This document shows positions 5,218 through 56,090 of a stretch of DNA of 64,000 bases, piece after piece. Origin of the DNA: a virus. Under the pieces are notes generated by a model. It did no database searches and was not told where the DNA came from. It was given only the letters and a program-made list of their open reading frames with translations. The stretch lies in IMG/VR virus record IMGVR_UViG_3300031541_000022, positions 41,155 through 105,154 of that record. The stretch is one strand, 5' to 3'. Numbering within the stretch: the first letter of the stretch is position 1; every line of letters begins with the position of its first letter. The position numbers and the translations under genes are program-made.

Positions 5218-6774
5218 ATGTCCGTAAACACAGACCTAGTCAAGAAGCCGTATACCACGGAGTCATTGACACAGAGTGAATTGCGTGAATTAGCACTTTG
5301 CTCAATTAATCCGCTTTACTTCATTAGAAACTATTGTTACATTCAGCATCCTACCAAAGGTAGGATGCCCTTCACCCTTTTTGATTACCAGGAAGGGCTC
5401 ATTAACAGTTATAACGATTACCGCTACTCAATCAGCCTTCTCAGCCGCCAGACTGGCAAGTCAACATGTGCGGCTGCATACTTGCTTTGGTTTGCAATGT
5501 TTAAGCCAGACAGCACAATCCTAGTTGCAGCACACAAGCGTGACGGCGCGCAAGAGATTATGACACGATTGCGTTATATGTATGAGAGTTGCCCAGACAA
5601 CATCAGAGCGGGCGTGACAGCGTATAACAAAGGATCATTAGAGTTTGACAACGGCAGCAAAATTATTGCACAAGCGACCACAGAAAACACCGGACGCGGT
5701 TTGTCACTCTCACTAGTTTACTTGGACGAATTTGCATTCGTTCCACCTAGAGTTGCAGAGGAGTTTTGGACCTCTATTTCACCTACACTTAGCACCGGTG
5801 GTAAGTGTATCATTACTTCAACCCCAAACCAAGATGACGACCAGTTTGCACAAATTTGGAAACAGGCTAACAAGCGTGTTGATGATTATGGCAATGAAAC
5901 TGAAGTCGGCACCAATGGTTTCCGTCCATATTTGGTTAAATGGGATCAGCACCCAGATCGTAACCAAGAGTGGGCAGATGCGGAACGCGCAAAGATTGGT
6001 GATGAGCGTTTCCGTCGTGAACATGAATGCGAGTTTATTGCGTTCGACGAAACATTGATCAACTCCGTTTTCCTAAGCGAAATGGATTTGGGAATGGAAC
6101 CCATGCGCAAGCATGGTCAAGTTCGTTGGTATGACACCATACAAGACGATCAGACATATCTAGTGGCACTAGATCCTAGCCTAGGAACAGGCGGCGACCC
6201 GGCTGCTATTCAAATATTTGCTATTCCTGGAATGCGCCAGGTTGGTGAATGGCAACACAATAAGACACCAGTTCAAATGCAGATCAAAATATTGAAGAGT
6301 ATTCTGGAAGAAATTGAAAGTGAAGCACTGAATAGTGAGATCTACTATAGCGTAGAAAACAATACGCTAGGTGAAGCAGCACTTGTTTCTATCGATGAAA
6401 TGGGTGAGGAAGAACTTCCAGGAACCTTCCTTAGCGAGCCGAAACGTCGGGGTAACGTAAGGCGCTTCAGAAAAGGATTTAATACGACACACTCCACGAA
6501 ATTGGCAGCATGTGCCAAACTGAAGAGATGGGTTGAAGAAGAAACAATGAAGATTCGCAGTAAGAATCTCACTCGCGAGCTTAAAACATTCGTGGCCAGG
6601 GGGAACAGCTATGCAGCCAAGGAGGGAGAAACAGACGATTTGGTCATGGCAACCCTTTTGGCTGTCCGCATGGCGATGCAGATTGCAAAATATGACGAAG
6701 AGGCGTTTCAGGATTTGAAGGATAGCTTTGACGAAACAGAACTGCGTCGACCTATGCCTATCGGAATACTGTGA
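5218..6774 (+). CDS. terL: Terminase large subunit (T4 gp17-like)
   Basis: Walker A SRQTGKST, Walker B VYLDEFAF, TSTP motif, RNase H-like nuclease VALDPSLG and DDLVMA. Confidence 0.95.
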   Translation: MSVNTDLVKKPYTTESLTQSELRELALCSINPLYFIRNYCYIQHPTKGRMPFTLFDYQEGLINSYNDYRYSISLLSRQTGKSTCAAAYLLWFAMFKPDSTILVAAHKRDGAQEIMTRLRYMYESCPDNIRAGVTAYNKGSLEFDNGSKIIAQATTENTGRGLSLSLVYLDEFAFVPPRVAEEFWTSISPTLSTGGKCIITSTPNQDDDQFAQIWKQANKRVDDYGNETEVGTNGFRPYLVKWDQHPDRNQEWADAERAKIGDERFRREHECEFIAFDETLINSVFLSEMDLGMEPMRKHGQVRWYDTIQDDQTYLVALDPSLGTGGDPAAIQIFAIPGMRQVGEWQHNKTPVQMQIKILKSILEEIESEALNSEIYYSVENNTLGEAALVSIDEMGEEELPGTFLSEPKRRGNVRRFRKGFNTTHSTKLAACAKLKRWVEEETMKIRSKNLTRELKTFVARGNSYAAKEGETDDLVMATLLAVRMAMQIAKYDEEAFQDLKDSFDETELRRPMPIGIL

Positions 6775-8138: not shown

Positions 8139-8228
8139 CAAGAGGTTACATTAAGTAATTTGCTTGATTAGAGAAAACAAGAGCCGGACTACCGGTAACA
8201 AATATAGGCTAATATAGGAGCAGACATT

Positions 8229-9236
8229 ATGGCAACTCTAGCAGAAATCCGCGCGAAGCTTCAAGCGCAAGAAAATAAGCAAAACAGCAAGGGTGGCGGT
8301 TACGATAACGCAATTTACCCTCACTGGAACACTCCCGAAAACGAAACATCAGTTGTAAGGTTCCTCGCAGACGACGACCCTACAAATGACTTCTTCTGGC
8401 GCGAGCGTCAGATGATCAACCTCTCATTCTCAGGCGTTAAAGGCCAGGATGAAGGCAAGCCAGTCACTGTAAAGGTGCCTTGCGTTGAGATGTGGGACGG
8501 ACAGAAGTGCCCAGTGCATCAAGAGATTCGTCCTTGGTTCAAGGACCCGAGCATGGAAGACATGGCTCGCAAATACTGGAAAAAGAAGAGCTATCTCTAC
8601 CAGGGCTTGGTAGTTACTAGCGGCTTCACTGAAGAAGAAACTCCAGAGAACCCAATCCGTCGTTTCATCATCAGCCCACAGATCCACAACATTATCAAGA
8701 ATGCACTTATGGATCCTGACTTTGGTGATGAGATGCCAACTGACTATGACCAGGGTGTTGACTTCCGCATTACAAAGACCAAGAAAGGTCAGTATGCTGA
8801 TTACACAACATCAAGCTGGGCACGTAAAGAGCGCAGCCTGGATCAAGCAGAGCGTGACGCGATTGCTGAACACGGTCATTACAACCTAGTTGACTTTATG
8901 CCAAAGAAGCCAACTGAAGAAGAACTACAAGTTATCTTCGACATGTTCGAAGCAAGTGTAGACGGTGAACTTTACGACCCAGAGCGTTTTGCAGATTTTT
9001 ACCGTCCATATGGCGTCGAGGCGCCATCCAGTGGAGCGAGTAATCGGTCTACTCACACAGAGACGCCCAAAGCTGAACCTGCCGCGGCTGCGAGCGTCCA
9101 GAGTGACCCCGAAGATACCGCAGAGGATGACAACGTTGCAACTGCACCCGTTGAAACTCCAGCGGCATCTGACGGCGGCAGCAAGGATGCAAAAGATATT
9201 CTTGCTGCAATCCGCGCTCGTAAAGAAGCCGGTTAA
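8229..9236 (+). CDS. gp32: Single-stranded DNA-binding protein (T4 gp32-like)
   Basis: MATLAEIRAKL N-terminus, VVRFL, Zn ligands C..CP, DF.I.K...G.Y..Y..S motif, acidic tail. Confidence 0.9.
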   Translation: MATLAEIRAKLQAQENKQNSKGGGYDNAIYPHWNTPENETSVVRFLADDDPTNDFFWRERQMINLSFSGVKGQDEGKPVTVKVPCVEMWDGQKCPVHQEIRPWFKDPSMEDMARKYWKKKSYLYQGLVVTSGFTEEETPENPIRRFIISPQIHNIIKNALMDPDFGDEMPTDYDQGVDFRITKTKKGQYADYTTSSWARKERSLDQAERDAIAEHGHYNLVDFMPKKPTEEELQVIFDMFEASVDGELYDPERFADFYRPYGVEAPSSGASNRSTHTETPKAEPAAAASVQSDPEDTAEDDNVATAPVETPAASDGGSKDAKDILAAIRARKEAG

Positions 9237-9253
9237 TTTCACACTCAAACTTA

Positions 9254-9280
9254 GACCGGGCCATTAGGCCCGGTCCTTTT
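9254..9280 (+). terminator. Rho-independent terminator
   Basis: GACCGGGCC-ATTA-GGCCCGGTC followed by CTTTT. Confidence 0.75.
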
Positions 9281-9296
9281 CCCAGAGGAGAGATTA

Positions 9297-9878
9297 ATGG
9301 TTGGATTCGTATATCGTTGGACTAATAAACTGAATGGTAAATGGTATATTGGTTCACACAAAGGTAGTCCTGATGATGGTTATACCGCGAGCGGAGTTTT
9401 GATCCAACAATCATTTGAAAAATATGGTATGGAGAATTTTGAACGAGAAATTCTCTATCAAGGACCTGATTATTTGAATGAAGAAAGAAAACTTTTAATT
9501 GAATTTGATGCGGCCAAATCGAATAGGTCTTATAATTTGATTAATACTGCATCTGATAATTTTGAAGGGAATAGATTGTCAGGTGATGATCATCCAATGA
9601 AAAGACCGGAAATTGCATTAAAGGTATCTAAAGCTAAAAAAGGAAAATTTAATTCCAATGGACATTTAGGATTAAAACATTCAGACGAGACTAAACGTAA
9701 AATGTCTCAAAACAATGCAATGAATAATCCAGAATCTCGTAAAAAGTTGTCAGAATCAAGAAAAGGCATGAAGTTCACTGATGAACATAAAGAAAATATG
9801 AGCAAATCTAGAAAAGGTATTCCTTGGTCTAAAGCACGTTGGGATGCTCATAATAAACGTAAAGGAGAAGATAAATGA
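9297..9878 (+). CDS. Seg-like GIY-YIG homing endonuclease with NUMOD3 repeats (apparently intact)
   Basis: GFVYRWTNKLNGKWYIGSHKG..YTASG...YNL; AT-rich; inserted between gp32 and uvsX. Confidence 0.85.
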   Translation: MVGFVYRWTNKLNGKWYIGSHKGSPDDGYTASGVLIQQSFEKYGMENFEREILYQGPDYLNEERKLLIEFDAAKSNRSYNLINTASDNFEGNRLSGDDHPMKRPEIALKVSKAKKGKFNSNGHLGLKHSDETKRKMSQNNAMNNPESRKKLSESRKGMKFTDEHKENMSKSRKGIPWSKARWDAHNKRKGEDK

Positions 9879-49040: not shown

Positions 49041-49562
49041 ATGAAACAACAGCGAGAAATTATACTCGCTAACCGTGACATTCGATTCAAGGAAGTTCGT
49101 TTAGTTACGGAAGCTGACAGCAAGGTGCTGTCAACGAATGAAGCATTGAGGCAAGCTGAAGACGCTGGCTTAGATCTTATTTTGATCAACGCTAGCGCCA
49201 AGCCTCCTGTTTGTAAGATCTTGGAATTGAACAAGTATCGTTACGAACAGAAACTAAAAGCGAAAGAAGCTGCACGGGCGCAGCGTGAATCCCGTACCAC
49301 TATCAAAGAGGTACAATTCAAGCCCAATATCGATCAACACGACTTCGAAACGAAGTGTAAGAAAATTGCTAAGTTTATCGACAAGGGCAACAAGGTTAAG
49401 GTTTTAATTCAATTTCGTGGTCGCGAACGCCAACACACTGATTTGGGATATGACATCCTAGAAAGAGTATTCCAGGAAGTTGACGGTATTGAATACGATG
49501 CAAAACCCTCTTTTGCTGGTAACCGTATTACCGCAATGTTAAAAGGAACCAAGGATGGCTAG
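49041..49562 (+). CDS. infC: Translation initiation factor IF-3 (possible ATT start at 49035)
   Basis: [24 protein letters not shown]...KYRYE, KEVQF.P.ID.HDF..K, KVK....FRGRE. Confidence 0.92.
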
Positions 49563-49800
49563 GCCAACACCAAATCAAAAGAAAACACAAAGCGGACCGC
49601 GCGGCTCAAGAGTCGAAGTCCGTGATAACAATGTAGGGCAGGCAATGCGCCGCCTAAAGAAGATCCTCCAACAGGAAGGTGTCTTCAAAGAGATGCGAGA
49701 ACGCCGTTACTTCGAAAAGCCAAGCATGACACGCAAAAAGGCTAAAGCAGCGGCTCGCAAGCGTTGGCTTAAGGAACAGGCCAAGCGCGAAAACTGGTAA
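49555..49800 (+). CDS. rpsU: 30S ribosomal protein S21
   Basis: [17 protein letters not shown]....EG...E...R.YFEKPS...K..A.RKR. Confidence 0.88.
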
Positions 49801-49811
49801 TAAATACCAGC

Positions 49812-49864
49812 AGGATGCCTTAGGGGTCCTATAAAAATCTTGCTTTTAAAAGGAGATTAAGATG
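49812..49864 (+). ncRNA. ROSE-like RNA thermometer in the hsp20 5' UTR, behind late promoter ATAAATA 49800-49806
   Basis: 5' hairpin 49812-49830; 3' hairpin AATCTTGCTT/AAGGAGATT pairs the UUGCU motif with the SD and leaves G49842 bulged. Confidence 0.75.
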
Positions 49865-50290
49865 ACAAAAGCAATTAACACACTAACTCTACCGAGCTTC
49901 CTCAATGACAGAGGTATTGGATTTGACAACTTTCTTGACACATTCGAGACACTCACTCCAAGCGGTGGATACCCTCCATACAACGTGATTAAAGACGGCG
50001 ACGACGAATACACTATCGAAGTTGCAGTTGCTGGCTTTACACAAGACGATCTGGAGATCACACAGGACGGCAAAAAGCTAATCCTATCTGCAAACAAGCC
50101 AGAGTTCGAAGGCGAAGAGCCTGCATACTTGCATCGCGGCATCAGCTCACGTAGCTTTAAGCGTGAGTTTGCACTTGCAGAACATGTAACAGTCACTGGT
50201 GCTGACCTCAAAGATGGCATCCTCAAAGTTTCATTACTACGTGAATTGCCAGAAGAAATGAAGCCACGCACCATCGCTATCGGCAAATAA
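49862..50290 (+). CDS. hsp20: Small heat-shock protein (Hsp20/IbpA-like)
   Basis: YPPYNV, IEVAVAGF, YLHRGIS.RSF.R.F.LA, A.L.DGIL. Confidence 0.93.
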   Translation: MTKAINTLTLPSFLNDRGIGFDNFLDTFETLTPSGGYPPYNVIKDGDDEYTIEVAVAGFTQDDLEITQDGKKLILSANKPEFEGEEPAYLHRGISSRSFKREFALAEHVTVTGADLKDGILKVSLLRELPEEMKPRTIAIGK

Positions 50291-50360
50291 TTACTGAGCG
50301 ATCATCAGTACCACTGTGGGAGGTGGCTACCACTACCTCCCACAACCAAAAGAGGGCAAT

Positions 50361-50660
50361 ATGTCAGCAGACGCAGACGTAGTCGAAAAAACACAAACCA
50401 AACTCAAGCGTCCACGTAAATGGGCGGTGATTGTACATAACGATGACGTAACTCCAATGGACTTTGTTGTTGGGTTGCTCTTTTACGTATTTAAAATGAA
50501 CCTTGATGAAGCTACAGGACTGATGCTCAAGGTACATCAAGAAGGCCAAGCAGTGGCTGGCATCTTCTCCCATGAGGTTGCAGAACAAAAGCTTGCGGAA
50601 GCCAATGTGTTCATCCGTTTGAGCAACATGCAACTGAAGTTGACTATGGAAGAAGAATAA
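50361..50660 (+). CDS. clpS: ClpS N-degron adaptor
   Basis: VIVHNDDVTPMDFVV...A..LML.VH..G.A..G; start at ATG 50361. Confidence 0.9.
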   Translation: MSADADVVEKTQTKLKRPRKWAVIVHNDDVTPMDFVVGLLFYVFKMNLDEATGLMLKVHQEGQAVAGIFSHEVAEQKLAEANVFIRLSNMQLKLTMEEE

Positions 50661-53219: not shown

Positions 53220-53248
53220 GATAAGTAATGGTGAAGAGAGGTAACACT

Positions 53249-53803
53249 ATGTCTATCACCAATTACGAAGGCAAAATACTTATTGCATCACCACAAATCA
53301 CATCCACAATCTTTCGTAAGAGTGTGGTGTATATTCATACACATAACGAGAAAGAAGGGGCAATTGGTGTAATGTTAAACGTCCCTGTTGAGATTGAAGC
53401 GGCTGAAAGATTTTCTCATGATATCAATTGGCCATACCCAGACCGTATCTACCATGGCGGTCCAGTAGACTACCGCATTGGCTACGTTATTCATTCAAAT
53501 GATTATGCACGTGAGTCGTCCATCAAAATCAACGACGATATGAGCTATACAAGTGGACGTCATATTGTAGACGACATCAACCGCGGTGTTGGTCCAAACG
53601 ACTATATCCTAGCAACTGGCTATTGTGGTTGGAAGCCAGGTCAACTTGAAAATGAAGTAGATAGCGGCATGTGGGTAGCAGTTGACTATGACAAAGACTT
53701 CTTCTTCCAGAACCTTGATCGCGAGCACGGACACGAATTTGCAATCAATGTTGCCGCAGAAAATAAAACAAATCAGCTTCTAGATATGGTTGACACAGCC
53801 TGA
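53249..53803 (+). CDS. YqgE/AlgH (DUF179)-family protein
   Basis: GKILIA.P....FRKSVV....H...GAIGVMLN, YHGGPV, G..GW..GQL..E....W. Confidence 0.85.
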   Translation: MSITNYEGKILIASPQITSTIFRKSVVYIHTHNEKEGAIGVMLNVPVEIEAAERFSHDINWPYPDRIYHGGPVDYRIGYVIHSNDYARESSIKINDDMSYTSGRHIVDDINRGVGPNDYILATGYCGWKPGQLENEVDSGMWVAVDYDKDFFFQNLDREHGHEFAINVAAENKTNQLLDMVDTA

Positions 53804-54979: not shown

Positions 54980-54984
54980 AGTTC

Positions 54985-55015
54985 TTGACTTAACTGCTCA
55001 CTTCATGTATAAATA
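54985..55015 (+). promoter_or_regulatory. Composite early/late promoter for tmRNA
   Basis: TTGACT-17-TATAAA overlapping TATAAATA (55008-15). Confidence 0.7.
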
Positions 55016-55020
55016 GGACT

Positions 55021-55320
55021 GTATTGATGACGTTCATCATGACGTAGGACGGACCGGGGTTCAATTCCCCGCACCTCCACCAAAATCTGACTGGTGCTTG
55101 ACATCATCGAGGTAGTGCTCGTGAACAACTGGATGAAGATTACTATGGGGGTGAGTTTGGGATCGACGTATGCTGATAGGTGAAAAGAGATGCCCGGATC
55201 TAAGCTCGGTTAACGCGAAGAAACTTACAAATGCAAACGAAAACTTTGCACCTACAGGATATGCCCTAGCGGCTTAACCTAGTGGCGCCCGGGGAGAGCG
55301 TAGCAACAGAATCTCCTCAT
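55021..55320 (+). ncRNA. ssrA: Circularly permuted two-piece tmRNA
   Basis: Acceptor piece first (T-arm CGGGG-TTCAATT-CCCCG, CACCTCC-A-CCA ending 55082), 64-nt spacer, then coding piece GGGGGTG from 55147 (G3-U70 pair); tag ANENFAPTGYALAA* at 55233-55277. Confidence 0.92.
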
Positions 55321-55328
55321 TTTCTATC

Positions 55329-55523
55329 ATGCATACAGATTACTATGTTTATGAATATCTAAGAGAAGACGGTTCTCCGTATTATGTAGGCAAGGGCCGT
55401 TGTGGACGTCACAAAGAACGTCACAATGTTCCGATTCCACCAGAAGATCGTATCAAAGTAGCAATGCATGTAGAGGTCGTTACAGAAAGTTTCAACCATC
55501 TTAGAGCACCTTTATGCGAATAG
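55329..55523 (+). pseudogene. Truncated GIY-YIG endonuclease
   Basis: YYVYEYLREDGSPYYVGKG.G.R, then loses similarity and stops at 64 aa. Confidence 0.7.
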
Positions 55524-55741
55524 AAATTAACGGCACGGAATACCCAGTGTCAATGAAATGGGAACAGGATGACACTATCTGCCATTTCGTTCACATAGAC
55601 GGTGAAATGCATGAATTAGATATTCCGTCCAAGATAAACAACGGCGGCAAGACGTACATAACGTCAGTACAATTTAGAGAAATACTTGCCCAACACATCC
55701 AAAAAGCCCTTGACTCTCGTGCTCGTAACGGGCGGTCGTGA
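55514..55741 (+). CDS. Hypothetical protein
   Basis: Coupled ORF. Confidence 0.55.
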   Translation: MRIEINGTEYPVSMKWEQDDTICHFVHIDGEMHELDIPSKINNGGKTYITSVQFREILAQHIQKALDSRARNGRS

Positions 55742-56090
55742 TTACAAAGATGTAGGCACAGTATTTGATTGCCTCACAACACTTGACGCACAGTTTGAGC
55801 GTATAATTGTCGTACATGGTGATGCACCAGGTGCAGACAGTCTTGCATACAAAGTCTGTGATGAAGTCGGTATTGAACAATCTCGCAACCCCGCTGCATG
55901 GAAAAAGTACCAAAGGGCATCTGGTCCGATACGCAATACGCTGATGCTGGACCTGTTCAACATCGACCTTGTTATAGCTTTCCCAGGAGTTACAGGCACA
56001 GCAGACATGTGTGAACAAGCTGAGGCAAGAGGAATACCTGTAATGACTCCAGAGGATTTATTGCCGGTTAAGACAGGGGTGGATACCTAA
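55686..56090 (+). CDS. SLOG-superfamily (DUF2493-like) protein
   Basis: VLVTGGRDY, VHGDA.GAD, A.W......GPIRN.ML, AFPG..GT.DM. Confidence 0.8.
   Translation: MPNTSKKPLTLVLVTGGRDYKDVGTVFDCLTTLDAQFERIIVVHGDAPGADSLAYKVCDEVGIEQSRNPAAWKKYQRASGPIRNTLMLDLFNIDLVIAFPGVTGTADMCEQAEARGIPVMTPEDLLPVKTGVDT

Follow-up and report, generated by a model that had tools for sequence, protein, structure and literature searches.

Known phage tmRNAs and the locus studied here

Two-piece transfer-messenger RNAs (tmRNAs) encoded by circularly permuted ssrA genes are known from bacteriophages; 53 unique ones, mostly marine, were counted among phage isolates, and the ssrA gene of phage Melnitz was described (Buchholz et al. 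2022, PMC9004378). tmRNAs as well as SmpB are known in huge phages (Al-Shayeb et al. 2020, PMC7162821), a tmRNA is annotated in the Sinorhizobium jumbo phage AP-J-162 (PMC11242549), and bacteriophages account for 79 entries of the tmRNA database (PMC11915505). Here we describe a permuted ssrA gene and its promoter at positions 54985-55321 of a 64,000-nt stretch (hereafter the window) of the IMG/VR virus record IMGVR_UViG_3300031541_000022. Phage two-piece tmRNAs and huge-phage tmRNAs are already published, and the window gene is one more example, which adds what is probably a marine jumbo phage to the known carriers. The promoter is the more useful result: a single 31-bp element fits the patterns of both the host and the phage late sigma factor and is located in front of more than half of the sampled phage tmRNA genes.

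The closest described counterpart is the ssrA gene of the cultured phage Melnitz. Both genes are phage-borne, permuted and of the alpha type, both are preceded by a promoter with TTGACA (Melnitz) or TTGACT (window) placed 17 nt before TATAAATA, their tags (ANDNYVPVDYALAA in Melnitz, ANENFAPTGYALAA in the window) are of one style, and CAGAA is part of the terminal hairpin loop in each. Melnitz has a 141-kb genome and belongs to the Kyanoviridae, with related marine T4-like myophages, whereas the window is a fragment of a PA5oct/Phosso-like jumbo phage. The Melnitz gene has an intervening segment of 130 nt and the alpha-type T-loop GGCAGUA and is followed by a glutamine riboswitch, in contrast to a segment of 64 nt and the T-loop UUCAAUU in the window gene, at which no Rfam riboswitch match was found.

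With the two-piece tmRNA of Caulobacter crescentus, represented by the Rfam family RF01849, the window gene shares the order of acceptor piece, intervening segment and coding piece, the G3-U70 pair, the encoded CCA and the terminal GCAACAGAA hairpin. Approximately 45 model positions of RF01849 between the stop codon and the terminal hairpin are missing from the window gene. The sampled cellular alphaproteobacterial genes are characterized by the promoter CTT-N17-CTATAT, a 5' hairpin followed by UAUGGCGAUAA, and the T-loop GGCRGUA, none of which the window gene has.

Identity and anatomy of the window gene

As judged from its sequence, the window carries an intact, circularly permuted, alpha-type two-piece ssrA gene of a phage. 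For the joint reading of a phage-borne ssrA gene that is processed into two pieces, tags nascent proteins and is transcribed from a composite early/late promoter, we estimate a probability of about 0.8. The elements of the locus are as follows.

54985-54990 (+): -35 element TTGACT, read from the sequence, 17 nt before TATAAATA
55008-55015 (+): TATAAATA, read from the sequence, comprising the -10 hexamer TATAAA and at the same time the T4-type late promoter motif
55020-55082 (+): acceptor piece of about 62 nt, with a predicted 5' end at about 55020-55022 (transcription start) and a predicted 3' end at the encoded CCA
55027-55041 (+): local hairpin UGAUGA-CGU-UCAUCA in the 5' part of the acceptor piece, seen in minimum-energy folds and absent from both Rfam models
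55055-55071 (+): T-arm with a 5-bp stem CGGGG/CCCCG and a 7-nt loop UUCAAUU, from the sequence and Rfam
55072-55082 (+): 3' strand of the acceptor stem CACCTCC (55072-55078), discriminator A (55079) and CCA (55080-55082), from the sequence and Rfam
55083-55146 (+): intervening segment of 64 nt, an insertion in both Rfam alignments, predicted to be excised
55147-55321 (+): coding piece of about 175 nt, preceded by the predicted RNase P cleavage site (before G55147) and reaching to the last base aligned to RF01849 (55321)
55147-55153 (+): 5' strand of the acceptor stem GGGGGTG, forming seven pairs with CACCTCC, the third of which is G3-U70
55233-55277 (+): tag frame from the GCA resume codon (55233) to the stop codon TAA (55275-55277), encoding ANENFAPTGYALAA; coding part 247-291 of the gene according to ARAGORN
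55291-55318 (+): terminal hairpin GGGGAGA/UCUCCUC with a 7-bp stem and a 14-nt loop, then AUUUUCU, seen in folds

A first-pass annotation made from the letters alone had called a circularly permuted two-piece tmRNA and proposed ARAGORN and the Rfam alpha_tmRNA model as checks, both of which turned out positive. ARAGORN called a permuted tmRNA and returned the identical tag, ANENFAPTGYALAA followed by a stop. RF04321 (tmRNA_permuted) matched with 101.4 bits (cut-off 47, E 1e-18) over model positions 1-213 of 213, and RF01849 (alpha_tmRNA) with 78.8 bits (cut-off 50, E 1e-19) over its full length, while the beta subtype (44.5 bits, cut-off 84) and cyano (25.4 bits, cut-off 70) models remained below threshold. 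The tRNA-like 3' half does precede the 5' half, since the CCA ends at 55082 and the GGGG of the 5' half follows from 55147, an arrangement flagged as a permutation by ARAGORN. The seven acceptor pairs including G3-U70 (GGGGGUG/CACCUCC) were likewise confirmed, with zero non-canonical pairs flagged in the covariance-model alignment, and so was the hairpin that closes the coding piece at 55291-55318, whose loop carries AGCAACAGAA at 55302-55311.

In addition to the 5' acceptor strand, the coding piece contains GGAUCGAC, the P2 strands, a candidate pseudoknot PK1, the tag frame and the terminal hairpin. The context of the resume codon, UUACAAAU directly followed by GCA, agrees with the model consensus, and the tag starts with the alanine resume codon and ends with YALAA and a stop, the standard ending of a ClpXP degron. 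The GCAACAGAA in the terminal hairpin is invariant across a three-way alignment and part of the RF01849 consensus; this hairpin likely represents the 3' end and a weak terminator.

A composite promoter in front of phage tmRNA genes

The promoter predicted by the first-pass annotation, TTGACT-17-TATAAA together with TATAAATA, is present at 54985-55015. From TTGACT to TATAAATA the spacer measures 17 nt, TTGACT and TATAAA each agree with the sigma-70 consensus at 5 of 6 positions, and TATAAATA ends 4 nt before 55020, the first base aligned to RF04321. In the window, TATAAATA ends 67 nt ahead of the last base of the CCA; in the family this spacing ranges over 64-74 nt, with a mode of 68 nt.

Promoters were counted in 1.03 Mb around 119 IMG/VR viral tmRNA loci. 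The pattern TTGACW-N16-18-TATAAATA was found 40-90 nt before the CCA at 67 of the 119 loci and only 6 times elsewhere in this sequence, counts that do not represent independent events, as the loci were picked by one sequence pattern and share ancestry. One of the 6 additional occurrences precedes a second tmRNA gene. TTGACW-N16-18-TATAAT, by comparison, occurs 55 times in the same 1.03 Mb and not once before a tmRNA gene. The spacer is exactly 17 nt long in 66 of 68 composite promoters, which comprise 51 distinct spacer sequences. Of 68 unique viral tmRNA promoters, 47 share the -35 element of the window gene at its spacing, and this conservation across the family speaks for a use of the element. 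The late motif begins with T in 62 of 68 cases, and a TGn extended -10 occurs in 39 of 68. Ahead of the 19 cellular alphaproteobacterial ssrA genes examined, the composite promoter is absent, and neither ATAAATA nor TTGAC is found upstream; these genes have CTT-N17-CTATAT and a 5' hairpin instead. From these sequence comparisons we regard the composite promoter as a conserved, phage-specific feature of phage tmRNA genes. The literature covered, which leaves out most subscription journals, yielded no earlier account of such a promoter at phage tmRNA genes.

A few composite promoters lie outside the primary tmRNA positions. The viral contig L056 contains two permuted tmRNA genes approximately 1 kb apart (8155-8400 and about 9100-9400), each equipped with its own composite promoter. 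Composites of the form TTGACW-17-TATAAATA that are not followed by a tmRNA gene are located at L007:3456, at homologous sites in L061, L068 and L106 (all approximately 3.3 kb from the tmRNA), and at L065:5438. Four of them are copies of one site ahead of an AT-rich stretch with no obvious gene, and one is situated directly after a tmRNA. These promoters may drive other small RNAs.

In the 110-kb record of which the window is a part, ATAAATA is the most enriched 7-mer before plus-strand genes (7.5-fold in the 80 nt upstream of starts). The relaxed motif NATAAATA occurs at 31 sites on the plus strand and 10 on the minus strand, and 21 of the 31 plus-strand sites are located 5-50 nt ahead of a called gene start, with a variable first base. 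Enrichment is confined to this relaxed motif, counted by its position before genes; the strict TATAAATA, with 5 copies in the window against 2.1 expected, shows no significant excess. Only at the tmRNA gene is the motif combined with a -35 element, TTGACW-N16-18-NATAAATA having a single occurrence in the 110 kb and the other sites being devoid of it. The record also encodes a gp55-type late sigma factor (G000:C1:6281-6613, 35 kb upstream of the window; phrog_234, E 6.8e-22), and gp55-like sigma factors are present in Phosso, Atu_ph07 and PA5oct as well. Upstream of the gp55-family gene itself, a NATAAATA site and a sigma-70-like site were noticed at 5647 and 5722. In comparison with the T4 late promoters, which consist of TATAAATA and depend on gp55, gp33 and gp45, the record has the identical 8-mer, a gp55 homologue and a motif situated just before gene starts; it differs in that its motif varies at the first base (NATAAATA) and that the tmRNA copy adds a sigma-70 -35 element. 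Neither gp33 nor Sigma70_r2 was found in the 110-kb record, with about 70% of the genome unseen.

That the composite promoter serves both the host sigma-70 polymerase and the gp55-polymerase is, on sequence grounds, well motivated by the gp55 gene in the record, the dominance of NATAAATA, the conservation in the family and the absence from cellular genes. The dual early/late function claimed by the first-pass annotation thus gained comparative support from gp55, NATAAATA and the specificity for phage tmRNA genes, while a reading restricted to one phase is kept as a rival. According to this rival, the promoter belongs to a single class, being either a sigma-70 early promoter in which TATAAATA arose by chance or a late promoter whose TTGACT is accidental or a vestige. 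The authors of the Melnitz study called the equivalent site early only (PMC9004378), and the chance of a TTGACW 16-18 nt from one of the 31 NATAAATA sites is approximately 0.05 by an estimate from base frequencies, which is not negligible for the record alone. On the other hand, the 55 TATAAT-type promoters never precede a tmRNA gene and the composite is nearly confined to such genes, both of its elements are fixed while the spacers diverge, T is favoured at the first motif base although the late motif itself does not require it, and a gp55 homologue is encoded in the record. We therefore consider a single-class promoter unlikely, though it is the most serious of the alternatives.

Besides the shared ancestry of the counted loci, some properties of the site speak against a dual promoter. 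TATAAA is devoid of the usual last T of the -10 element, and a simple sigma-70 scan did not list the site for this reason. In the tmRNA copy a TG abuts the hexamer directly, out of register for an extended -10. Furthermore, NATAAATA sites are found ahead of replication and nucleotide-metabolism genes as well, so the label "late" is given to the motif by analogy to T4 only.

Due to the fusion of sigma-70 -35 and -10 elements with the late motif TATAAATA, transcription in two phases is proposed, early by the host sigma-70 polymerase and late by a polymerase with the phage gp55-type sigma factor. This leads to the testable statement that phages want trans-translation throughout infection, as opposed to early only, as proposed for Melnitz. 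If true, the tmRNA would be among very few phage genes selected for expression independent of the infection phase, and the promoter would be a simple sequence marker separating phage-owned from cellular ssrA genes. It is tempting to speculate that the two-piece tmRNA travels as a cassette together with a purpose-built composite promoter read by both polymerases, that the rescue RNA is thereby made throughout infection, and that the cassette moved between unrelated myophage lineages, from Kyanoviridae-like marine to PA5oct/Phosso-like jumbo phages; we see this extended scenario as evenly balanced.

Structure and conservation of the tmRNA

The window gene was compared to approximately 100 unique permuted tmRNA genes from viral contigs, 74 of which were used as relatives in the covariation alignment. 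The T-arm stem pairs covary and are canonical in 73-74 of 74 sequences, with four pair types at the first two positions, and three P2a pairs adjoining the T-arm covary as well. Acceptor pairs were counted without alignment, since MAFFT misaligned the start of the coding piece. In the family, covariation was seen at acceptor pairs 5 and 6, with CG in 64 and TA in 38 genes at pair 6. In the covariance-model alignment the P2 helices ACG/CGU, UUCA/UGAA and GUAU/AUGC pair, and the G.A mismatch in the P2 of the window is the commonest state of the family (31 of 74). For the candidate PK1, the stem CCGG/UCGG is modelled and a second stem UAAG/CUUA was spotted by eye only. Folds of the precursor and co-folds of the two pieces show the T-arm, the acceptor stem and the terminal hairpin but give no clear pairing for P2 and PK1. 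The RNAalifold consensus structure derived from the MAFFT alignment is limited to the T-arm, P2a and part of the acceptor stem. The local hairpin at 55027-55041 competes with the modelled long-range P2 pairing UUCA/UGAA.

The gene is diverged in several respects. Its T-loop, the classical UUCAAUU, is unique in comparison to 93 other viral and 19 cellular genes; the alpha-type loop GGCRGUA is not found in it, whereas 17 of the 19 cellular alphaproteobacterial genes have GGCGGTA or GGCAGTA. The 5' hairpin of the acceptor piece in RF01849 aligns to gaps. In a phylogenetic tree, the window gene falls as a long branch within a clade (support 0.99) that comprises ten viral genes and a single cellular one, and it is at most 65% identical to any relative found.

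Some results weaken the case for a functional molecule. The stability of the minimum-energy fold does not exceed that of shuffled sequence (z = 0.04), the P2 helices include two non-canonical pairs in the covariance-model alignment, and the RF04321 score of 101 bits is lower than that of almost all of 147 cellular alphaproteobacterial genes, typically 125-170 bits (the tally, 147 of 151, counts one unpublished genome, G044, whose sequence was not used). Contigs from RNA libraries match only 55050-55086 and 55221-55322 and differ in their flanks; they stem from relatives or conserved tmRNA parts and are uninformative on the expression of the window gene. An SmpB gene was not found in the 110-kb record, which leaves about 70% of the genome unseen.

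The low Rfam score, the long branch with its low identity to relatives, and a truncated gene fragment directly downstream would fit a passenger gene acquired from a host or another phage that is decaying or unexpressed. All defining elements are intact, however, the promoter is the phage-specific composite rather than the cellular CTT-N17-CTATAT, and relatives on many phage contigs retain the same architecture, which makes a passenger the least probable of the explanations considered, with only a very small chance of being correct. From covariation and model matches, the window gene is an intact and probably functional tmRNA gene on a diverged branch. Independently of this question, a prophage attachment-site remnant was considered at the locus and dropped, given the completeness of the gene and the presence of a promoter of its own.

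Two contigs closely resemble the coding piece. The metatranscriptome contig X19 is identical over 76 nt (55247-55322), a part that spans the tag end and the terminal hairpin. X2, a contig from an algae metagenome, has 2 mismatches in 128 nt (55187-55314). In both contigs the flanks are unlike. Because these contigs match the coding piece while their flanks differ, close relatives of the coding piece apparently occur together with other acceptor parts or other tag starts, which points to possible recombination inside the tmRNA gene.

Proposed processing and function

By analogy with the two-piece system of Caulobacter, we infer RNase P processing, alanylation, dependence on SmpB and tagging for the window gene. 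A single precursor would be transcribed from the composite promoter with a start near 55021. Host RNase P would cut before G55147, and host nucleases would remove the 64-nt intervening segment as far as the encoded CCA; this predicted excision of 55083-55146 follows the two-piece tmRNA of Caulobacter (Keiler et al. 2000, as cited in PMC9004378). The acceptor stem and the P2 helices would then join the two resulting pieces, which measure about 62 nt (acceptor) and about 175 nt (coding). Following charging by the host alanyl-tRNA synthetase via G3-U70, host SmpB and EF-Tu would deliver the tmRNA to stalled ribosomes, where translation may resume at GCA 55233 and append ANENFAPTGYALAA, a degron of the ClpXP type ending with LAA.

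Instead of supporting trans-translation in this way, the phage tmRNA might compete with or reprogramme that of the host, for example by a tag that host proteases treat differently, or as an inhibitor. A ClpS protein is encoded by the same phage, and in E. coli ClpS steers ClpAP off ssrA-tagged substrates. The T-loop and the tag are unlike those of the sampled cellular alphaproteobacteria. A precedent for inhibition is given by the tmRNA-like RNA of mycobacteriophage DS6A, which has no coding sequence and inhibits the endogenous tmRNA, as cited in PMC11915505. Contrary to this, the window gene has a complete tag frame with a canonical alanine resume codon and the C-terminal YALAA, and a complete tRNA-like domain with G3-U70 and CCA. 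Competition or reprogramming is thus improbable in our view, and tagging for degradation is the favoured function.

Source phage, relatives and host

On the basis of its protein matches, the window is a fragment of a jumbo myophage genome whose relatives include PA5oct, Phosso and Atu_ph07. The large terminase best matches that of Pseudomonas phage PA5oct (54%), Sinorhizobium phage Phosso (53%) and Agrobacterium phage Atu_ph07 (50%). The 110-kb record has an estimated completeness of approximately 30% (CheckV), and its genes lie on a near-uniform strand and include, besides the large terminase, helicases, a ribonucleotide reductase and a 1303-aa tail-fibre-like protein. The whole stretch is present in a single public sequencing run, a coral metagenome, which is its probable source.

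Phosso, with a terminase 53% identical to that of the window, is a jumbo myophage as well and has both a permuted alpha-type tmRNA and a gp55-like sigma factor. Its tmRNA differs by an intervening segment of 410 nt, the tag ANDNVSTKVALAA, and a promoter with TTGACT followed by TGTAAATA rather than TATAAATA, and the tmRNA genes of Phosso and the window are placed separately in the tree. The Phosso gene (PV764938.1, approximately 349553-350242, minus strand; L126:3554-4243) scores 113 bits with RF04321 and 108 bits with RF01849. It is situated in a 751-bp gap, un-annotated in the record and missed by ARAGORN, probably due to the intervening segment of about 410 nt, whose open reading frames (ORFs) do not exceed 57 aa.

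More than 119 IMG/VR contigs match the permuted-tmRNA pattern, and tags in the style of ANDNFAPxGYALAA are common among them; the intervening segments of the family are mostly 40-70 nt long. The tags nearest to that of the window, ANENFAPSGYALAA and ANENFAPSGLALAA, are located on phage contigs in a metagenome-assembled genome (MAG) labelled Rhodobacteraceae, and ANDNFAPTGYALAA and ANENFAPSGYALAA were found on other phage contigs. A contig scan with an ANENFA-tag pattern yielded six loci, comprising two MAG-binned phage contigs, two of Candidatus Fokinia and two without an ARAGORN call. BLAST did not find a close tmRNA homologue in 401 sampled alphaproteobacterial genomes, in which only short, weak matches occurred, and searching the locus against 50,697 phage records gave no matches, as was the case for L080, the nearest viral relative.

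In the assembly "Rhodobacteraceae bacterium Water_Bin34" (L128, L130 and G002), a GTDB species representative, eight permuted tmRNA matches were observed. Two of its contigs, which were examined, carry a family-B DNA polymerase, heme oxygenase, bilin reductase and a late-transcription coactivator, at a coverage of 5x versus 86x. This bin appears to contain many T4-like phage contigs. The composite promoter helps to flag phage contigs mis-binned into bacterial MAGs, for which Water_Bin34 is an example.

The first-pass annotation took the permuted ssrA gene as an indicator of the host group. This is not supported in the form given. Melnitz carries an alpha-type ssrA gene yet infects an OM43 methylophile, a non-alphaproteobacterium, the most similar tags are on phage contigs, the 401 sampled alphaproteobacterial genomes contain no close BLAST match, and the best-matching large terminase is that of a Pseudomonas phage. 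Alpha-type ssrA alone is unsafe for assigning a phage host, and host inference from the tmRNA is weak. An alphaproteobacterial host of the window phage is plausible, since Phosso and Atu_ph07 infect Rhizobiaceae.

Genes adjacent to the tmRNA

No plus-strand ORF of at least 40 aa is located in 54980-55328, a gap of 350 nt that holds the tmRNA gene. According to Pfam, IF3 (both domains), Hsp20 and ClpS are encoded at 49041-50660 (+), and an 81-aa basic S21-like ORF is located at 49555-49800 (+). Together with the tmRNA gene, IF3, the S21-like ORF, Hsp20 and ClpS form a cluster of translation and proteolysis helpers inside 6 kb. The tmRNA region is flanked by genes of an AlgH-like DUF179 protein (53228-53803, +; E 4e-34) and of a YspA/SLOG-family protein (55686-56090, +; Pfam E 1e-11), the latter corresponding to phrog_289, "GTP-binding domain".

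Beginning 8 nt past the tmRNA hairpin, a 64-aa ORF (55329-55523, +) matches only positions 2-53 of 165 in phrog_10829 (E 2.5e-9). Its start, YYVYEYL...SPYYVGKG, resembles by eye the N-terminus of a GIY-YIG nuclease, and it is without a Pfam match. We presume that this ORF is probably a truncated mobile-nuclease-like gene.

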